Below are positions 17,245 through 33,649 of a DNA stretch of 33,649 nt, in pieces. The translations under genes and the position numbers were made by a program. The stretch comes from Acidobacteriota bacterium (lineage in GTDB: Bacteria > Acidobacteriota > Vicinamibacteria > Vicinamibacterales > SCN-69-37), in the NCBI GenBank assembly GCA_031405995.1, contig JANOGJ010000260.1, forward strand, positions 1-33,649, in the 5' to 3' direction. Position 1 is the first letter of the stretch. The number at the start of each line of letters is the position of its first letter. The notes beneath the pieces were generated by a model, which made no database searches, was not told the origin of the DNA, and saw nothing but the letters and a program-made list of their open reading frames with translations.

Positions 17245-18252
17245 TTACGAGACCGCGGTGACGGCGTTGCTGATCGTGTCGCTGATGTGGACCGGCACGC
17301 CCAGGAAGCTCGTGTCGATCTGCTTCAAGCCGGCTTCGATCCCCATGGCGTTCGAAGACTTGTTCATCCCCATCTTCCGCAGGTTCGCCCGGACTGTCCG
17401 GTTGCAGTAGAAAACGGGCTTGGACATGCCGAGTGACGGGATGCGCTCCAGTGCGTCCGACATGAGGTTGATGATGCAGGTCCCGGCCGTCAGGGCTTGG
17501 GTGCCGGTCTGCGCGGCGAGGGCCACGGTGTCGATGTTCGGGATGCGAACAGCGTACCGCCAATCCTTCACCATCAGGCCGGCATCCCATGCGTACCGAT
17601 CCGCGTAGGCGCGGTAGGGAGCCGGAGGCGTCTGCGCGTCGAAGGCGTCGATGAGATCGAGGTCCTCGTGGACGATCCCGGCCTTCGAGCCCTTCGGGAA
17701 GATCCCGGCGATGGTCTGGTCGCCCCAGCCGACGAGCCAGATTTCGGTCAGGTTGGTCGAGCCGCCAGCCGTCAGGACGTTCTGCGACGCCGCGCCCGAC
17801 AGCGACGGGTAACGGAGCCGCAGGCCCATGAACTGCTCCGGGTTGACGGTCGTGTCGCCGGCAAAGAGCGCCGTCAGGAACGTCTGGTTCATGCCTTCGA
17901 AACAGGGCATGGACTCGGACAGGCGGAATGCCGCCGTGTTTCCGTTCAGCGCGACGAGTTTCGCGTCCGGCTGCGAGCGCATTTCGAGCATCGCGGTCGC
18001 ATCCACGATCTGAGCGGTCGTCGACTTGGTAGGCTGGACGCCGCCGTACAGTTTGCGCCACGTCGCCGCCGGAAGGCCCGTGCGGATCGTGGTCTGGTTG
18101 CCCGTGGGGAGGTTGCCCTCGATCCACAGCATGTCATTCAAGGGCTCGTTGGTCTGGTTGAGAAGCTCCACGACTTGCGCCGTGTTGCCGTCCGGGTCCG
18201 TGCGCTTCGCCCAGTCAAGCAGGGTCAGCGCGGTTGCTCCGAGTGTTGCCAT
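17245..18252 (-). CDS. Major capsid protein (HK97 fold, N4 gp56/BPP-1/epsilon15 type, 335 aa)
   Basis: ATG 18252 has a GGGAGA RBS. It lies after the scaffold gene. N-terminus MATLGATALTLLDWAKRTDPDGN...NEPLNDMLWIEGNLPTG and size fit this capsid family by recollection. Confidence 0.88.
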   Translation of the reverse strand: MATLGATALTLLDWAKRTDPDGNTAQVVELLNQTNEPLNDMLWIEGNLPTGNQTTIRTGLPAATWRKLYGGVQPTKSTTAQIVDATAMLEMRSQPDAKLVALNGNTAAFRLSESMPCFEGMNQTFLTALFAGDTTVNPEQFMGLRLRYPSLSGAASQNVLTAGGSTNLTEIWLVGWGDQTIAGIFPKGSKAGIVHEDLDLIDAFDAQTPPAPYRAYADRYAWDAGLMVKDWRYAVRIPNIDTVALAAQTGTQALTAGTCIINLMSDALERIPSLGMSKPVFYCNRTVRANLRKMGMNKSSNAMGIEAGLKQIDTSFLGVPVHISDTISNAVTAVS

Positions 18253-18911: not shown

Positions 18912-19218
18912 CTTCGATCTCCTTGGGTGCGTTGGTCGGGTCGATGCGCTTGGCGATGATCTCTTTCTCTATGTCGTGCCAAACGCTCTCACCGCATTTC
19001 AGTGCCGCAGCGCGCAGACCCAGTGCCACGCTGCGCTTTCCCATGTCTGGGTTCGCCGCATACAGGCCGCACTCAAAGATCAGTTGCGCGACGAAGCGGA
19101 GGCCAGACGGACTCGTGAACACGTATTTCTTATCGAGATCCAACTGTTTCTTGCGCTCGGCTGCGGTGTCGCGCACGAACTTTCTGACGGTCTGGTTGGC
19201 GGCGTCGCCTTCGCTCAT
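18904..19218 (-). CDS. Hypothetical protein (104 aa)
   Basis: ATG overlaps the portal stop (ATGA), and its own stop overlaps the scaffold start. Composition is protein-like. Confidence 0.6.
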   Translation of the reverse strand: MSEGDAANQTVRKFVRDTAAERKKQLDLDKKYVFTSPSGLRFVAQLIFECGLYAANPDMGKRSVALGLRAAALKCGESVWHDIEKEIIAKRIDPTNAPKEIEDE

Positions 19219-20897
19219 CGCGCGCCTCCCGCGACCTGGCCGAGCCGCTCAAGAGGGTTCCCTGGGACCGGCTTCGTCTCCGCGCCGACCTGTAGGGCGA
19301 CGGCAGCGTCCTTCATCGGCTTCGCCATCGCAGCCATCTGCTCCATCTGAGCCTGGCGCTCGCGGTCCTGACGGATCGCAGCGATTGCGGCGGCGTCCCG
19401 TACAACCTTGGGAGGAGTCCCGACGCCCTTCGCGAATTCGGCAAGTGCGACGTCTTGGTCGTAGCCATCGAGGATCGACGCCGTGACCGGGGCCATCTGG
19501 AGCACGAACTCCGACGTGCGCTTGATCGAATCGACGGCGAGCAGCCGGAGCGCAGAAGACAGCGGCCCGATGAACTCGACCCCGAGATTGACCCCGGAGA
19601 GCTCCGGCGGAGGCGGCTCGATCTCACCGCGGCGCCACATGATCGCGAAGATGCGGTCGATCGCCGGCTTCAGTTTCTCCTGCTCCATGCGCTGAATCGT
19701 TGGGCCGACCTGCAAGAGGCGCTCTTCCTTCTTGGCCCGGATCTCCTCCGCTGTGACGCCGGAGCGGTCCTCATTTGCGATCATCAGGAACAGGTCGACG
19801 GCGAGTGCCTCGTTAATCATGTTCTCGATGTCGTGGAGTTCTTCGCGAGCCTCGACGAAGATGCGAGGATCGACGACGACGGCGGGTTCGATTTTGGCGT
19901 GCGGCCCCGAGGGATCGTAGTAGTTCGTGTCTCCCGGAAGAATCGTTGTCCCGCCGCCGTCGCGATGAGCAATGGGCGCGTTCATGGGCGGGCGCACCAG
20001 CATGTCCAATGCTTGCAGCCTGGCCTTTTCGAACTTCTGGAGCCCCATCGCGGCGCCCAAAGCGTCCGCAGCCGGTGGAATACCGTAGGAGTCCTCGCCG
20101 ACCTTGTCCCACCGCGAGCACATGACGGGGAACTCACGGAAGCCGGATTCGCGCAGGTACTTGTCTTCGTTCCCGGCCGTCTCGAACCAGCACGACGAGA
20201 ACGGCATGTTCTTTGTGTCCTGGTATCCGTAGGCTCTGCCGCTTCTGGGTTTGACACCGTGGACAATCTCGATCATCTTGTGCCGGCCCGAGGCGTTCTC
20301 GTTCAAGGCCCGCGTGGCTTGGCTCACATTCTCAATGCCGAACATAGCGATCAGGTTCTTCACGCTCATCGTGGTGCGGCGATACCAGGTGTCGACCACC
20401 CCACGCGCGTTGTTCGCGATCACGAACGATCCCACCGGAGCGACGTAGGCCCTGAACAGGTCCAGGTCGTCTTCCTCGATGTTCAAAGAGGACGTGCCGA
20501 ACGTGACGTCGTCGCCGTAGGTCTCGTGGCATCCGTCGTACAGATTCGTCTTTGCGATCTGTCGGAACATCCGAAGCTGCTGCCGGTAGAGCCAATCCCT
20601 GACCGGGGGGTGTTCGGCCAGATCCGGGTCTTCCGTCGTCAGCCCGAACCACGGCCGCGCCCGAGGAGTGAGGCCACCCATGAGTCCAGCGCGCGCCACG
20701 CGCACCGCCAAAATCGCACGGTTCCGCGCGTTCTTGCTGTTGCGCTTCGGCTTGTTGGCGTCGGACGACAGGAAGCGAGACCGGGACGGCTGGAAGTAGT
20801 CCGACAGGTCTCGATACCAGGCATCGAACCACGATCGGTCGCTTAACAGCGCCGCGTTCTCGCTCCTGGACTCTGAGACCGGGGACGGGTTCATCAC
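19215..20897 (-). CDS. Portal (head-tail connector) protein, 560 aa
   Basis: Size and position fit. N-terminal region ...RNRAILAVRVARAGLMGGLTPRARPWFGL is typical of podovirus connector proteins. GAAGGG lies upstream of the ATG. Confidence 0.88.
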   Translation of the reverse strand: MMNPSPVSESRSENAALLSDRSWFDAWYRDLSDYFQPSRSRFLSSDANKPKRNSKNARNRAILAVRVARAGLMGGLTPRARPWFGLTTEDPDLAEHPPVRDWLYRQQLRMFRQIAKTNLYDGCHETYGDDVTFGTSSLNIEEDDLDLFRAYVAPVGSFVIANNARGVVDTWYRRTTMSVKNLIAMFGIENVSQATRALNENASGRHKMIEIVHGVKPRSGRAYGYQDTKNMPFSSCWFETAGNEDKYLRESGFREFPVMCSRWDKVGEDSYGIPPAADALGAAMGLQKFEKARLQALDMLVRPPMNAPIAHRDGGGTTILPGDTNYYDPSGPHAKIEPAVVVDPRIFVEAREELHDIENMINEALAVDLFLMIANEDRSGVTAEEIRAKKEERLLQVGPTIQRMEQEKLKPAIDRIFAIMWRRGEIEPPPPELSGVNLGVEFIGPLSSALRLLAVDSIKRTSEFVLQMAPVTASILDGYDQDVALAEFAKGVGTPPKVVRDAAAIAAIRQDRERQAQMEQMAAMAKPMKDAAVALQVGAETKPVPGNPLERLGQVAGGAR

Positions 20898-28750: not shown

Positions 28751-29019
28751 TTCTCCCCCCTCGCCACCTCTTCCACCGTCACCTTGACACGCACTGGGCG
28801 CGGCATACGCCAACAGTGCGGCTCGATTCGGAGATCCTTGCGGCCCTTGATGTACCCGAAGTGCTTCTCGGCCCATTCTCGCGCCGCCTTGCGTGTTAGA
28901 AACGTCTTGAACTGGAGGGCGTCCCAAAGCATGAGGTGTCGCGACGGGTTCCTCCTTGATCGCGAATCCCACAGTACGGCCCAGCGATGGTAAGTGTGCT
29001 TAGCTTTTTGTGGTTCCAT
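28747..29019 (-). CDS. Hypothetical protein (90 aa)
   Basis: ATG 29019 is preceded by GGGGGGA. Its stop is coupled to the RusA start. Confidence 0.6.
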   Translation of the reverse strand: MEPQKAKHTYHRWAVLWDSRSRRNPSRHLMLWDALQFKTFLTRKAAREWAEKHFGYIKGRKDLRIEPHCWRMPRPVRVKVTVEEVARGEK

Positions 29020-29935
29020 CTACGTCCCCCCTAGCAACTGAGCGCGAGAGCTGCTCCGCGAGGGAGTCGCGGTCGGCTTCGGCGGCATCCGCTCGGTCTG
29101 TCGCAACTAGCGCAACACCATGCGCCTTCGCCGCGTTTGCCATTTCGTCGAGTCGATGCTTGTCGCATTCGATCCGCGCCTTCCGCTCGGCCTCGATTTG
29201 CGCTTCCATCTGCGCGACGACGTTCGCCACACCGCTGCGCGTCTCAGCCGCTTTCACTTCACCCTTTAGAAACTCGACCTCGGCGCGGAGGCGCACGATC
29301 TCGTTGTTCGCTTCGTCAAGCACCGCTTGGCCCTCAAGCGAGATCACAGGCTTCGCCTCGTACGCCGCGATGACGGCGGCGCGGGCTTTGGCTCGTCGCT
29401 GTGTGCCCTGCGCCGACGTGTCCCCGGTGTGCCAGGAACGTTCGCACATGAGCGCGTAATCCAACGCCTTCTCGAACTTCCCACTCCCCGGCGCGGGCTT
29501 GGGTGTGGCTGCGCTTCGGAATGACGCGGCGACCTCCGGGCTCAGTTGAACTACAGGCATCGCGTAGGGGTCGCCAATCGCCTCGGGGTTGAGCACCACC
29601 GATCCGGTAAGGCGCATGTGCTCATGTTGCTCCGGTGCTAATAGCCCGCCCGATGGTGGCGTGGGCGAGGGCGCGGGAACACACTCGGCGCATGGTACAG
29701 CGCCGGGAGGCGAGTGAACGCACCCACCGTCTCGCGTGGGCACGCTCGGGGCCGCAGAAGAATGCAGAACGTGGTACTCCCAATCGACACCACATTCGGG
29801 ACAGTACCCGAAGCGACTTGGCTTGAATCGACTTGGCCCCGGCTCGGTGAGGGTGAGGAGCATTTCTTCAGCCTTACCGGAGTCGCCCCACGCCTCTGAT
29901 AACCACCGCGCCGCCTCCTGCCTACTTGTGGTCAT
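29000..29935 (-). CDS. Hypothetical protein (311 aa): shared 31-aa leader, CxxC...CxxC zinc-ribbon-like segment, C-terminal coiled coil
   Basis: ATG 29935 overlaps the end of the 70-aa gene. MTTSRQEAARWLSEAWGDSGKAEEMLLTLTE, then CPEC...CAEC, then a long heptad region. The listed 371-aa form overlaps the upstream gene. Confidence 0.6.
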   Translation of the reverse strand: MTTSRQEAARWLSEAWGDSGKAEEMLLTLTEPGPSRFKPSRFGYCPECGVDWEYHVLHSSAAPSVPTRDGGCVHSPPGAVPCAECVPAPSPTPPSGGLLAPEQHEHMRLTGSVVLNPEAIGDPYAMPVVQLSPEVAASFRSAATPKPAPGSGKFEKALDYALMCERSWHTGDTSAQGTQRRAKARAAVIAAYEAKPVISLEGQAVLDEANNEIVRLRAEVEFLKGEVKAAETRSGVANVVAQMEAQIEAERKARIECDKHRLDEMANAAKAHGVALVATDRADAAEADRDSLAEQLSRSVARGDVDGTTKS

Positions 29936-29938
29936 CGC
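29842..29938. repeat. Copy 1 of a perfect 97-bp direct repeat
   Basis: Base-for-base identical to 30758-30854 by manual alignment. The flanking bases differ. Confidence 0.95.
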
Positions 29939-30134
29939 TGGACTCCTCCTGCGGCTCGATTCGTCCGAGTAGTTTGACAACATAATCGGCATGGCGCGTA
30001 GCAAACGCCTCAGCTTTGTCAATCGTTGCGTGGGTGTTAATGCCGATTTGTAACCACACAGGGAGCCACCAGCGCCACAGTTGAACCTCGTAACCGGCGT
30101 GGCCGTCGCGGACAATCCGGTAGTGGGCGCTCAT
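29922..30134 (-). CDS. Hypothetical protein (70 aa)
   Basis: ATG 30134 (ATGA overlap with the upstream stop) is preceded by GGAGGGGA. MSAHYRIVRDGHAGYEVQLWRWWLPVWLQIG... Confidence 0.55.
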   Translation of the reverse strand: MSAHYRIVRDGHAGYEVQLWRWWLPVWLQIGINTHATIDKAEAFATRHADYVVKLLGRIEPQEESSDDHK

Positions 30135-30466
30135 TTCGTCCCCTCCTTCACAATCCTGTTTGCGATGCGGGCGAGGGCTTCGCAGGCTGCCAACCATCGC
30201 TCCGTATAGAGACTTTCGCTTTCACCCGCAGCGACGACCATGTTCGGTATCACCGCGTATTCCTCGTCGGGGAACTCGTGAACAATCCACGGCCCCGCCT
30301 TCGCCACGATCTCCCGGTCGCGAGCGTCGGCTGTCTTGGCGTAGCGTGGGACGTGCTGCCTACACGTCACTCCAGTAGTTGCGCGGCGCAAACAGCGCGG
30401 CCCGAAACCATTTGCGACCCTAGCAACACATTGGTCGGCTGAGAGGCGCTTACGACTCATCGCCAT
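30131..30466 (-). CDS. Hypothetical protein (111 aa) with a C-x10-C-x10-C-x2-H motif
   Basis: ATG 30466 or 30460 overlaps the end of the upstream gene. CVARVANGFGPRCLRRATTGVTCRQH looks like a small zinc-binding motif. Confidence 0.55.
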   Translation of the reverse strand: MAMSRKRLSADQCVARVANGFGPRCLRRATTGVTCRQHVPRYAKTADARDREIVAKAGPWIVHEFPDEEYAVIPNMVVAAGESESLYTERWLAACEALARIANRIVKEGTK

Positions 30467-30851
30467 CCCCCAACGCACCGCAGGCGCGGGCCAGTTGTCG
30501 CAAGTTGCCAACGGTGTGATGACACGGGATCTCACGTTCAAGGGGCGAATCGTGCGTGTCCCCGCAGCAATCGCAATCGCGGGTCGCGTCCGATGGTGGC
30601 GTGGGGGTGTCTTGGTCGGGAGTCCCAGGAGTCGAACCTGGGCGGGGCTTTTTCGGCATCGGCGTACCGGCCACAAGCACCTCACGCTCCTCGCCAATCT
30701 GCTCACGGGTGCGACCCGCTGTCCTGCCGCTGGACTCATCTTCCCGATTCGATTCTCGCTCGGTGAGGGTGAGGAGCATTTCTTCAGCCTTACCGGAGTC
30801 GCCCCACGCCTCTGATAACCACCGCGCCGCCTCCTGCCTACTTGTGGTCAT
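30450..30851 (-). CDS. Hypothetical protein (133 aa) with the same 31-aa leader as the 29000-29935 gene; Cys/His cluster CDCCGDTH...CHH
   Basis: ATG 30851 (ATGA overlap) sits directly behind a G10 tract. The first 31 residues are identical to the paralog. Confidence 0.55.
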   Translation of the reverse strand: MTTSRQEAARWLSEAWGDSGKAEEMLLTLTERESNREDESSGRTAGRTREQIGEEREVLVAGTPMPKKPRPGSTPGTPDQDTPTPPSDATRDCDCCGDTHDSPLEREIPCHHTVGNLRQLARACGALGDGDES

Positions 30852-30854
30852 CGC
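30758..30854. repeat. Copy 2 of the perfect 97-bp direct repeat
   Basis: Identical to 29842-29938. Confidence 0.95.
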
Positions 30855-31135
30855 CCCCCCCCCAACGCACCGCAAGCGATTGCCTTCATATCCTCGATGG
30901 TGTTCATCGCGTGTTCGTGGTGGTCAAGGCTAAAGCGGCCACGACCCTCAGCGATCTCAGCTAACGCAGCCCTCAACGCATCCCGCTGCTCGGTGAGCTT
31001 CGCCACCTCAGCGCGGGCGTCGAGAAGGTCGGCGGCGAGGTCGTCGTGCAAGGAGTCCGTGTCGATCTCGTCTCCGTCACATTCATAGGTGCCAGTCTTG
31101 GTTATCTGCTCAACGTAATCGGTGTTAACCCTCAT
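30848..31135 (-). CDS. Hypothetical coiled-coil protein (95 aa)
   Basis: ATG 31135 is preceded by GGAGGTGGGGG. It ends ...IACGALGGGR; compare ...RACGALGDGDES at the end of the next gene. Confidence 0.55.
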   Translation of the reverse strand: MRVNTDYVEQITKTGTYECDGDEIDTDSLHDDLAADLLDARAEVAKLTEQRDALRAALAEIAEGRGRFSLDHHEHAMNTIEDMKAIACGALGGGR

Positions 31136-31588: not shown

Positions 31589-32287
31589 TTAGCGCCGCGA
31601 GTGCGTGAGGATCGACACAGCCTTGACGCCAGGGATCGCCATCGCGCCCTTCTCGGCACGAGCGCGGGAGTTGAGCGCGACCATGTTCGGTTCGACGTAG
31701 AAGTTGTTCGACTGGTTGCCGCCAGCCCACGCCTTGAATGCGGCCATGTCTACGATCTCCGCGCCCCACGTCTCGCGCGTGGACACGCCGGCCACCTTCG
31801 CCACCTCGGGGCGCACGATCGCAACAGGAGGAGGCGGCAACGGAGCCGTCAACGCATCTTCGGCCTCATCCTCGGTGTCGGCCATCGCGGCGTCTAGCTC
31901 GCGCTGCGCGTCCTGCTTGGCGAGCGCTTCGGCGTGGAGGTGCTCTTGCACCTTGGCCGCTGCCTGCCTCTCGGCTGCCTCGAACGCTTTGCACGTTCCG
32001 CTCGCCGTATCGAGCGCGGTTAAGATCGGCGCCAGGAAGTGATCCTGCGCCGCGACGACCTCCTGGCGCGCCGCCTCGGCCTTGCGCTTGGACTCCATCG
32101 CGGCTTCGATGGACGGCTTGAAGAACAGCTTCACGCGGTCGCGTGCGTCCATGATGCGAGCGATCAGCGCCAGCCCCGCCGCGTGCTCTTCCACGTTGCG
32201 GACGACGAGGGCGTCTGCGGCGGCGATAACAGGGGCGACCTCGCGCTCGACCTGTTCGGTGTTGATGGTGGCGATGGCGTCACTCAC
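31589..32287 (-). CDS. Coiled-coil protein (232 aa), likely partner of the adjacent recombination protein
   Basis: Long Ala/Glu/Gln helical region plus a C-terminal globular part (VAGVSTRETWGAEIVDMAAFKAW). Its start overlaps the upstream stop. Confidence 0.65.
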   Translation of the reverse strand: MSDAIATINTEQVEREVAPVIAAADALVVRNVEEHAAGLALIARIMDARDRVKLFFKPSIEAAMESKRKAEAARQEVVAAQDHFLAPILTALDTASGTCKAFEAAERQAAAKVQEHLHAEALAKQDAQRELDAAMADTEDEAEDALTAPLPPPPVAIVRPEVAKVAGVSTRETWGAEIVDMAAFKAWAGGNQSNNFYVEPNMVALNSRARAEKGAMAIPGVKAVSILTHSRR

Positions 32288-33092
32288 TGAAAGGCGCCTC
32301 CTCTGTCGTCACGTCCCGGTACTCTGTGATGGTCGCGTTGCCCTTCGCCGTCATCTCGGAAATGATCTCGACGAAGTGCCCGTCGAGAGCGATCAGGCCC
32401 TCCGCGATGGTCTTGGAGAACGTCCCGAACTTCTCGCCGTAAGCACCGTGGAACGTGTAGAGCGTCCACGGTCCCTTTGGCGACTTGCCTTCCTTCGTCT
32501 CGAACTTGACGAGCTTCCCGCGCCAGGCCGGCGAGGCGTCACGGGCAGGCGGTCGGCTCGTAGCCGCCTGTTGTGTCCCCAGTGACGTTGGGTCGGTGCG
32601 CTCCTCACTGAATGAGCCGACGTGATCCATCTCCTCCGCTGGCGTCGTTTCGTACCGTTTTGCCAGCGACAGCACCCAAGCGAACGCGATGCGGCACGCC
32701 TTCCCGGTGGCACGAGTGATCGCCATGCTGCGGCGCGCGTTCTGCGGGCGCCCCATCCACACGCGATCGTCCGGCCCGCCGCACTCGGCCGACGCGCGGG
32801 TCAGCACCATCCCGTCGCTCATGCGGACCAGCTCGACCTCGGCCACGTACCGACCCTCCGGCATCTCGTGCACGGCGACCTCACGCGGGAGGCAGCCGCG
32901 GAGCGTGGCGAGTGTCACCCACCCCTCGACGCGGACGAACTTCTTTCCCTGGATCATCGAGAACAGCCTTTGCCCCTCGATCACTTCCGCGAGGACGTTG
33001 GCTTCCTCGGTGGCTTGTCGGATGATGGCACGCGGCGATGGTCGGTCCATCGCGGTGCCGATGTCCTCGATCTTGACTAGCGATTCGGTCAT
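32280..33092 (-). CDS. Putative single-strand annealing / ssDNA-binding protein with an OB-like C-terminal domain (270 aa)
   Basis: ATG 33092 is preceded by GGAGGAG. NARRSMAITRATGKACRIAFAWVLSLAKRYETTPAEEM resembles the terminal helix plus acidic linker of phage SSAPs. The C-terminal WRGKLVKFETKEGKSPKGPWTLYTF...FVEIISEMTAKGNATI looks like a beta-barrel. The function call is tentative. Confidence 0.65.
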   Translation of the reverse strand: MTESLVKIEDIGTAMDRPSPRAIIRQATEEANVLAEVIEGQRLFSMIQGKKFVRVEGWVTLATLRGCLPREVAVHEMPEGRYVAEVELVRMSDGMVLTRASAECGGPDDRVWMGRPQNARRSMAITRATGKACRIAFAWVLSLAKRYETTPAEEMDHVGSFSEERTDPTSLGTQQAATSRPPARDASPAWRGKLVKFETKEGKSPKGPWTLYTFHGAYGEKFGTFSKTIAEGLIALDGHFVEIISEMTAKGNATITEYRDVTTEEAPFSE

Positions 33093-33164: not shown

Positions 33165-33230
33165 TTAGAACGGAACCCCGTCGTCGACCACGACTCCGAG
33201 GATCACGGACAGGAACAGCACGGTCAGCAT
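33165..33230 (-). CDS. Possible 21-aa hydrophobic micropeptide (MLTVLFLSVILGVVVDDGVPF)
   Basis: ATG 33230 overlaps the stop of the Ala-rich gene and has AGGAG about 10 nt upstream. It is too short to judge statistically. Confidence 0.25.
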   Translation of the reverse strand: MLTVLFLSVILGVVVDDGVPF

Positions 33231-33649
33231 TCGGCATCACTCCTTTCGCCCATGTACGCCGTGATGGACGGCGCGTCGATGGCCTTCGAACAGGGATCAA
33301 TCAACCGATCAAGAAGCGCGAACGCCGACTCCTGTAGGCCAATCTTCGTCGGTTCGAGTTTCTTGCTCGCGGCATCCAACGCGGCATTCCACGCGGCATC
33401 CAACGCGGCATTCAACGCGGCAACCCACGCGGCAACCCACGCGGCATTCAACGCGGCAGCCGACGCGGCATCCCGCGCGGCAGCCCGCGCGGCAGCCGAC
33501 GCGGCAGCCAACGCGGCAACCCACGCGGCAACCCACGCGGCATTCAACGCGGCAGCCGACGCGGCATCCAACGCGGCATCCCGCGCGGCAGCCCACGCGG
33601 CAGCCGACGCGGAGGCCGATGTCGTTCGGGCGTCCTCGATGCTTGCGAT
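33224..33649 (-). CDS. Partial (N-terminus beyond the right edge) Ala/Trp-rich tetrapeptide-repeat protein with a unique 47-aa C-terminal tail
   Basis: The frame is open to nt 33649 (IASIEDARTTSASASAAAWAAARDAALDAAS...). The listed start at 33571 is only a TTG inside the repeat. The non-repeat tail SKKLEPTKIGLQESAFALLDRLIDPCSKAIDAPSITAYMGERSDAEC argues that this is the coding frame. Confidence 0.6.
   Translation of the reverse strand: MASIEDARTTSASASAAAWAAARDAALDAASAAALNAAWVAAWVAALAAASAAARAAARDAASAAALNAAWVAAWVAALNAALDAAWNAALDAASKKLEPTKIGLQESAFALLDRLIDPCSKAIDAPSITAYMGERSDAEC
33369..33620. repeat. Tandem array of about 21 units of a 12-nt repeat (plus strand GCGGCAnyCnrC)
   Basis: Units read directly from the sequence: gcggcatccaac, gcggcattccac, gcggcatccaac, gcggcattcaac, gcggcaacccac (x2), and so on. 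A higher-order repeat of about 96 nt is also visible. Confidence 0.95.

Follow-up and report, generated by a model that had tools for sequence, protein, structure and literature searches.

Contig JANOGJ010000260.1 of the Acidobacteriota bacterium assembly GCA_031405995.1 (33,649 nucleotides (nt), analysed over its whole length and referred to below as the window) is a podovirus-like phage sequence with all genes on the minus strand. At its right-hand end lies an array of 12-nt repeats that encodes a peptide of the form (Ala-Ala-x1-x2)n, in the following called the AAxx array. The gene that contains the array is the most upstream one visible, with exonuclease-like, RusA and DnaB-like genes downstream on the same strand. 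This places it in the early/replication region, in line with an earlier note on this DNA that had described it as the first visible gene of the early operon. The coordinates of the various features are collected in Table 1.

Tandem Repeats Finder reported a single strong array at 33368-33612 (period 12, 20.4 copies, 84% matches, 0 indels, score 287), whereas all remaining repeats of the window scored 51 or less. The 12-nt tandem array of the earlier note is thus real and by far the strongest repeat of the window. The peptide that was written there, with x1 drawn from Trp, Leu, Ser and Arg and x2 from Val, Asn, Asp and Ala, matches the translation. The array consists of 19 perfect units with a degenerate unit before and a half-unit after them. 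More specifically, x1 is Trp in six, Leu in seven, Ser in three and Arg in three units, and x2 is Ala in six, Asp in five, Asn in four and Val in four, which gives the array a net charge of -2 (3 Arg, 5 Asp). A proposed super-repeat of eight units (96 nt) was recovered weakly, as a self-identity of 0.903 at a lag of 96 nt versus 0.808-0.856 at all other lags.

Five of the six reading frames are open across the array, namely all three plus frames and two of the minus frames. The claim that all three minus frames are open does not hold, as the frame from 33648 contains three TGA stops within the array, made by TTG AAT units. The plus strand of 33362-33613 likewise reads (Ala-Ala-x-x)n (AASNAAFHAASNAAFNAATH...), because GCN GCN is nearly self-complementary at a shift of one base. 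The open antisense frames across the array are not evidence for a second gene.

The coding frame of the array (minus, from 33649) continues into the non-repetitive tail AASKKLEPTKIGLQESAFALLDRLIDPCSKAIDAPSITAYMGERSDAEC (KKLEPTK..LQESAFALLDRLIDP). The truncated coding sequence comprises 12 residues before the array (IASIEDARTTSA), the AAxx array itself and a C-terminal tail of 45 residues, and it ends with the TGA at 33226..33224. The comparison with homologous proteins supports this minus frame, which had also been chosen in the earlier note, as the coding one. The tail KKLEPTKIGLQESAFALLDRLIDP directly after the array is 85% identical to that of the closest relative, P0001, and fits the invariant P-T and S-A..L columns of the family alignment (A1). 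At the DNA level the tail is about 82% identical to P0001 over the first 75 nt, and P0001 shares the junction between array and tail (GCC GCG ACC AAG AAA CTC GAA CC). In addition, the 12 residues before the array align with PTIENARVV of P0001 and with ASLEEARTR of P0006. The earlier note had allowed that homologs might show the region to be non-coding; instead, they align with the chosen frame as protein.

No in-frame ATG, GTG or TTG is present upstream of the array within the window, and the 5' end of the gene is therefore cut by the window edge. That edge lies 36 nt upstream of the array, so that the N-terminal domain (N-domain, about 140 residues in relatives) falls beyond it. Exact-pattern scans of IMG/VR and of the Joint Genome Institute (JGI) metagenomes did not find the N-terminus, nor did a word search with an array-specific N-terminal peptide, and a protein-guided scan of the JGI metagenomes yielded distant relatives only, on contigs that also start at the array. 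The opposite end of the window encodes no N-domain and the window is not circularly closed on the array gene. A Logan contig of 439 nt from the source runs (for example SRR20217207) overlaps 33583-33649 and reaches 372 nt past the end of the window. Another Logan contig (493 nt, runs X1-X3) matches the tail-coding region at 33319-33373 with 3 mismatches and 2 indels and diverges downstream. It occurs at similar depth, and we take it to be a sister gene or a strain variant of the same community.

An unnamed family of phage proteins

The protein search yielded eight homologs (P0001-P0008), seven of which share one architecture: a helical N-domain of about 140 residues with conserved His and Cys residues and the pattern GxH..GxCxME..GE..SDxPxCVSP..F..WND..DD..R, followed by (AAxx)n and then by an L-x-P-T...LQxSAxxLLDRMI tail (A1). 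The eighth, P0003, combines the same array and the same tail with a different N-domain, which matches phrog_18326 at 2.4e-52 and the Pfam domain Imm5_like (PF21805) at only 15.6 bits, below the gathering cut-off of 25. The window fragment and P0002, P0005, P0006 and P0007 have no match to Imm5_like, and 'putative immunity protein' is Pfam's name only. The short protein gp43 of Erwinia phage phiEt88 (YP_004327346.1; L001:2949-3239) belongs to this second, Imm5_like/phrog_18326 type, the N-terminal domain of which differs from the type-1 N-domain of the window family. Nevertheless, gp43 has the same (AAxx)n array and follows the same nucleotide rule (GCT GCG KGG GMT, 77% nt-identical to the window array), and it is likewise encoded in a phage early region, upstream of exoVIII/RecT in the early-left operon. 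Considering the array and tail of P0003 and the array of gp43, these elements look like a module that is shared between families. Genes similar to gp43 were not found in E. coli genomes.

The family is very large. The A1 profile retrieved 8,327 of 1.84 billion representative proteins at E<=0.001, 5,249 at E<=1e-10 and 1,431 at E<=1e-30, the last number corresponding to a family size of at least 1,431 clusters at 50% identity. At least 80 viral loci were confirmed in IMG/VR, and all IMG/VR counts given here refer to the 80 loci among the matches listed. The hosts are high-GC bacteria, which carry the gene on phages and prophages; prophage-like loci were present in species-representative genomes of Actinomycetota, Alphaproteobacteria, Gemmatimonadota, Planctomycetota, Verrucomicrobiota and Dormibacteria. 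The N-domain is present in just two of 50,697 deposited phage records. One of these is the cultured Ralstonia phage RS-CA1, whose family member (XDQ96087.1; L088:5001-5657) is annotated as hypothetical and has an array of 13 units (GCC GCC NGG GMC). In the relatives, the gene is located among small early genes that adjoin a helicase, primase-polymerase, RusA, VRR-NUC, methylase or recombinase gene. A conserved partner gene was not found, as no gene family adjoins the array gene in more than 8 of the 80 loci, and a toxin domain was absent from the window neighbours scanned.

The members are named 'hypothetical protein' in all source records and have no precomputed Pfam domain attached. Pfam, NCBIfam and PADLOC gave no match for the family, and PHROGs gave weak matches only, to families of unknown function (phrog_3416, phrog_13065 and phrog_8332). 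The earlier note, which could not place the protein in a named family, was correct in this respect. A sequence search for a solved structure of a relative, an Rfam search, and a literature search on the family motif strings, PF21805/Imm5_like and phage tandem repeats returned nothing relevant, and the Imm5 text of PMC3482391 held no usable description. On the basis of the alignments the window gene is best regarded as a member of this very large, unnamed phage protein family.

Nucleotide signature and unit number

The window array contains 0 synonymous differences in 76 codons, as all variation is confined to codon positions 1 and 2 of the x codons. In fact, all 19 perfect units have the Ala-Ala codon pair GCC GCG, and the backbone of P0001 is identical. 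A clear rule emerged from the 75 family arrays of at least six units. The mean fraction of units that deviate from the modal base of their array was highest at unit positions 7 (0.456) and 11 (0.329), versus 0.015-0.054 at the remaining ten. The invariant positions include the fourfold-degenerate third positions of the two Ala codons, where synonymous deviations numbered 8 of 1338 and 7 of 1318. The Ala-Ala pair is private to each array, with 12 different modal pairs among the 75, so that synonymous sites are fixed inside each array and different between arrays. The x1 codon is essentially NGG (Trp, Arg or Gly), with counts of 456 for TGG, 404 for GGG, 262 for AGG and 136 for CGG, and of 0 for both GGC and CGC, whereas in the N-domains of the same genes GGC makes up 51% of the Gly codons and CGC 42% of the Arg codons. 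The x2 codon is GMY, encoding Ala or Asp. Counted per slot, the distinct codon alleles comprised 34 synonymous and 340 non-synonymous ones. The invariant backbone, together with the variation at two positions of the unit, leads us to read each array as a recently homogenised backbone with two hypervariable nucleotides. In P0134 the array has decayed to a non-repetitive helix in which Trp still occurs at every fourth residue (WNAVWESSWD, WSIGWDAAWIAGLNAARA), suggestive of an old array in which homogenisation has ceased.

The number of units varies strongly. The arrays of the listed IMG/VR loci have 4 to 37 units and those of 106 complete representatives 2 to 31 (median 8.5 by strict count), which puts the window array in the upper part of the family range. 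P0001, with the same GCC GCG backbone and the same junctions, has only 3 units. Within clusters of at least 90% identity the lengths of the members differ by multiples of 4 residues. Moreover, groups of proteins with 100% identical N-domains and tails were found to have 10/11/14/8/7, 10/28, 13/24/8, 7/4 and 6/18/13 units, all of these unit-number comparisons being based on short-read metagenome assemblies. In these assemblies the in-frame gain and loss of units that had been proposed for the window is seen among its relatives. In a cluster of ten members of equal length the x sites varied at 5 of 28 positions, versus 4 of 174 outside the array (Fisher p=0.003). One form of 14 units was assembled identically on 60 contigs, which indicates that the assembly is often reproducible.

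Predicted fold and competing explanations

AlphaFold2 (AF2) models were made for two full-length relatives, P0007 and P0006, from an alignment of only 7 sequences. The model of P0007 (16 units; mean predicted local distance difference test (pLDDT) score 79) shows two helices, 121-164 and 168-218, that are joined by a turn at the central AAGD unit. The array has pLDDT values of 66-81, and the values exceed 90 at the base, where the helix before the array and the tail meet the N-domain. P0006 was predicted to have the same topology, with helices at 135-162 and 167-203, and in these models the tail forms the base of the second hairpin helix, packed on the N-domain. The prediction suggests, with moderate confidence, that the array folds as a two-helix hairpin. 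Foldseek gave no match with E<1 in the PDB and one kind of match in BFVD, to an uncharacterised phage homolog only.

The structural ideas of the earlier note fared unevenly in the light of these models. The repeat was indeed predicted to be alpha-helical in both relatives, but as a two-helix hairpin instead of a solenoid or one helix with a fixed Ala face. In a helix of 100 degrees per residue a period of 4 residues turns the Ala pair by 40 degrees per unit, i.e. one full turn per 9 units, and consequently a straight helix cannot have the persistent Ala face that had been envisaged. The proposed binding of a periodic ligand such as nucleic acid found no support, given the net charge of the window array and the near-random order of unit types in 134 arrays; binding of nucleic acid is unlikely because the array is mildly acidic.

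Taken as a whole, these data are best explained, with a probability that we put at roughly 0.6, by the array being the repeat module of an accessory early phage protein, in which it would form an expandable helical stalk. Units would be gained and lost in steps of 12 nt or in multi-unit blocks, via slipped-strand mispairing or unequal recombination, and the 8-unit higher-order repeat of the window would be one such block. Unequal crossover or slippage, with breakpoints that fall within units, would keep the backbone uniform by concerted evolution, while selection or a high local mutability would keep x1 and x2 heterogeneous, a logic as in the repeats of transcription activator-like (TAL) effectors. 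Following the AF2 models, and with the same moderate confidence, the array would turn back halfway along its length to give an antiparallel hairpin of two Ala-packed helices, and the tail would clamp the base of this hairpin to the N-domain. Consequently the number of units would set the length of the projecting stalk (about 80 residues corresponding to roughly 60 Å), with x1 and x2 decorating its surface. Finally, we would guess that the stalk is a quickly evolving surface for the interactions of a protein that acts in host takeover, anti-defence or exclusion.

The best-supported statement is a structural and evolutionary one: an accessory early protein with an expandable helical stalk and a fast-evolving surface. 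Among the functional readings our first guess would be a surface for interactions in conflicts of the phage with its host or with other phages, considering that the array is hypervariable and shared with Imm5-like proteins and that the gene lies in the early region without a fixed partner gene. A more far-reaching, and rather improbable, proposal is that the AAxx array constitutes a minimal programmable recognition module, with two specificity residues in every four, that phages expand, contract and rewrite in order to track a variable target of the host or of rival phages. The fast rewriting would then involve strong diversifying selection or a site-directed mutability at two nucleotides per unit. 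If true, the proteins would represent a new class of hypervariable counter-defence or exclusion proteins, common to at least two unrelated N-terminal domains.

The signature is unusually clean, with 10 of 12 nucleotides homogenised, two hypervariable and a copy number that, in short-read assemblies, shifts between otherwise identical genes, and such a signature is usually tied to the specificity-determining repeats of conflict systems. This large family has no name, domain model, structure or located paper. The cultured phage RS-CA1 provides a usable experimental model that makes the function testable.

A parallel is found in the repeats of the TAL effectors, which vary in number and which concerted evolution keeps near-identical apart from a pair of adjacent hypervariable residues in each unit. 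The AAxx arrays resemble them in being homogenised tandem DNA repeats of variable number with two hypervariable residues per unit. However, a TAL-effector unit is a helical hairpin of 33-35 residues that reads one DNA base, whereas the AAxx unit has 4 residues, its order looks random, the array is mildly acidic and there is no sign of a code of one unit for one ligand. In-frame variable-number tandem repeats are known in phage and bacterial genes, for instance the collagen-like G-X-Y repeats of phage tail fibres and contingency-type coding repeats. In common with these, the AAxx unit has a length that is a multiple of 3 (period 12, 0% indels), the copy number differs between near-identical relatives as assembled from short reads, and such assemblies break at the array. 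In contrast, the AAxx gene is located in the early, non-structural region, its repeat is helical and Ala-rich and neither collagen-like nor beta, and a role of the array in phase or antigenic switching is hypothetical. Long Ala-rich helices that fold into a hairpin also occur in alacoil/ROP-type antiparallel pairs and in the type I antifreeze protein 'Maxi' (PDB 4ke2). The latter was among the non-significant Foldseek matches (E=5.5). Their periods are 7 residues (alacoil) and 11 residues (antifreeze protein) versus 4 in the AAxx array, there was no significant structural or sequence match and the biology is unrelated. The heptad (3.5-residue) core periodicity of a canonical coiled coil or alacoil is not found either, as the period is exactly 4 and the PDB held no fold match.

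Several observations weigh against the expandable stalk. The full family membership of the window gene is based on the tail, the array and the 12 residues before it, as the N-terminus lies outside the window. Its array varies at unit positions 7, 8, 10 and 11 and as a result contains Leu, Ser, Asn and Val and no Gly, an alphabet that is atypical for the family; Leu and Ser together account for 18 of about 1,400 x1 residues elsewhere. The AF2 confidence in the array is moderate, with an alignment of 7 sequences behind the models. The complementarity between mirrored units that would be expected of a centred hairpin was absent in 134 arrays (W-G, R-R and other pairs, |z|<2.5), and in the same arrays the near-random order of unit types also fits neutrality within the allowed alphabet. 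Neither experiment nor context indicates a function, PADLOC being without a match and the PDB without a relative by sequence or fold. Moreover, short-read assemblies can miscount tandem units. Of the 80 listed IMG/VR contigs 17 end inside the gene, 15 in the array and two (L014 and L040) in the tail just after it (L009, L011, L012, L014, L020, L023, L034, L040, L049, L052, L060, L061, L065-L067, L069 and L080), and in all four source runs (metagenomes of freshwater sediment) the Logan k-mer contigs are interrupted within the array. The JGI contigs L089, L090 and L092 begin just after an array. The array is in fact a systematic assembly breakpoint, which is probably why the window stops 36 nt beyond it, and such predictable breaks affect estimates of viral contig completeness. 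Nevertheless, the number of about 20 units in the window is plausible, as the longest exact internal repeat is about 56 nt.

The alternative that survives best, although we consider it unlikely, is a neutral expansion of low-complexity sequence, in which a tolerant helical linker is sized by slippage, x1 and x2 drift, and neither length nor pattern carries information. The near-random order of units and the lack of mirror complementarity (134 arrays) fit this explanation, as does the fact that genes which look intact have anything from 2-3 to over 30 units. The common x1 residues are, in addition, all single-nucleotide neighbours of TGG. If the variation were neutral and old, however, the fourfold-degenerate third positions of the Ala codons should vary like positions 7 and 11, whereas they vary about 20 times less. 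Moreover, Leu, Ser and Cys can also be reached from TGG in one step and yet were found at x1 in only 13, 5 and 1 of about 1,400 units, and all family members, as well as a second architecture, have retained the array.

A membrane- or lysis-linked role is a minor and improbable alternative to the surface for conflict. In that case the Ala-rich amphipathic hairpin, studded with Trp and Arg, would act at the inner membrane, for instance in exclusion or in lysis timing, together with a downstream hydrophobic peptide. In the window a hydrophobic open reading frame (ORF) of 21 residues indeed overlaps the stop codon of the array gene, and a small transmembrane-like ORF takes the same coupled position in about 11 of 57 complete family loci (e.g. 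L033, L041, L043, L045 and L068). In RS-CA1 the array gene is located between ORFs annotated by the depositors as endolysin and holin. On the other hand, most loci lack such a neighbour, the N-domain has no predicted transmembrane segment or signal peptide, the RS-CA1 labels are putative annotations and the 21-residue ORF may not be a gene. It may encode a translationally coupled micro-peptide, its status as a gene being uncertain.

We regard as very improbable that two nucleotides of each unit are rewritten by a site-specific process, be it one like that of the diversity-generating retroelements (DGRs) or damage at a hotspot in the G-run. Such targeted hypermutation would account for the restriction of variability to two nucleotides per unit across 75 independent arrays, with invariant neutral sites next to them, and both variable positions would be adenines in an AGG GAY template unit. 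Arrays with GCA codons, however, keep that A invariant, so that the process is not adenine-specific, and the window varies at its four positions with T/C, G/T/C, G/A and C/A/T, respectively. Furthermore, the window contains no second (template) copy of the array, no reverse transcriptase was present among the ORFs scanned, and concerted evolution plus selection, for which there is precedent, suffices as an explanation. Adenine-directed mutagenesis of the DGR type was rejected on these grounds, and a site-specific mutability of another kind may act on the two nucleotides.

Hardly credible, finally, is a non-coding DNA element (iterons or an origin, a packaging site or a G-quadruplex tract) or an assembly artefact with an incidental open frame, in spite of the five open frames, the ends of the window and many related contigs at the array and the GGG run at every 12 nt in most family arrays, since the frame leads into a conserved protein tail and, in relatives, is also continuous with a conserved N-domain, the constraint between arrays is on amino acids (the Ala-Ala pair is kept while the Ala codons differ), most GGG runs are broken in the window array, Rfam gave no match and arrays are present in the finished isolate phage genomes of RS-CA1 and phiEt88.

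Neighbouring genes

Table 1. Location of the array gene, its parts and other features of the window.
Feature	Positions	Strand	Evidence or remark
5'-truncated coding sequence of the array gene, 141 codons + stop	33224..33649	minus	translation, homolog alignment
Degenerate leading unit TCC GCG TCG GCT (S-A-S-A)	33602..33613	minus	unit table
19 perfect 12-nt units GCC GCG YNG RNT, (A-A-x1-x2)19	33374..33601	minus	unit table, Tandem Repeats Finder
Trailing half-unit GCC GCG AGC AAG (A-A-S-K), junction of array and tail	33362..33373	minus	unit table
Conserved family tail KLEPTKIGLQESAFALLDRLIDP	33287..33361	minus	alignment A1, nt identity to P0001, AF2 of relatives
21-codon hydrophobic ORF (MLTVLFLSVILGVVVDDGVPF), ATG overlapping the array-gene stop	33165..33230	minus	
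270-residue phrog_19042 protein of unknown function, next after the array gene	32280-33092	minus	no Pfam match
232-residue protein	31589-32287	minus	weak exonuclease PHROG match (phrog_10477), no Pfam match
Portal	19215-20897	minus	38% identical to epsilon15-type portals
Major head protein	17245-18252	minus	

The window further encodes tail proteins, a virion protein of 1,911 residues, RusA and a DnaB-like helicase. The two genes that follow the array gene, i.e. the phrog_19042 gene and the phrog_10477-like gene, may form a recombination module. At some distance from the array a perfect direct repeat of 97 nt occurs at 29842-29938 and 30758-30854, 916 nt apart, which provides the minus-strand ORFs 29000-30115 and 30450-30875 with the same N-terminal stretch of about 31 residues (MTTSRQEAARWLSEAWGDSGKAEEMLLTLTE). 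It may represent a real duplication of a gene start or a duplication made by the assembly.

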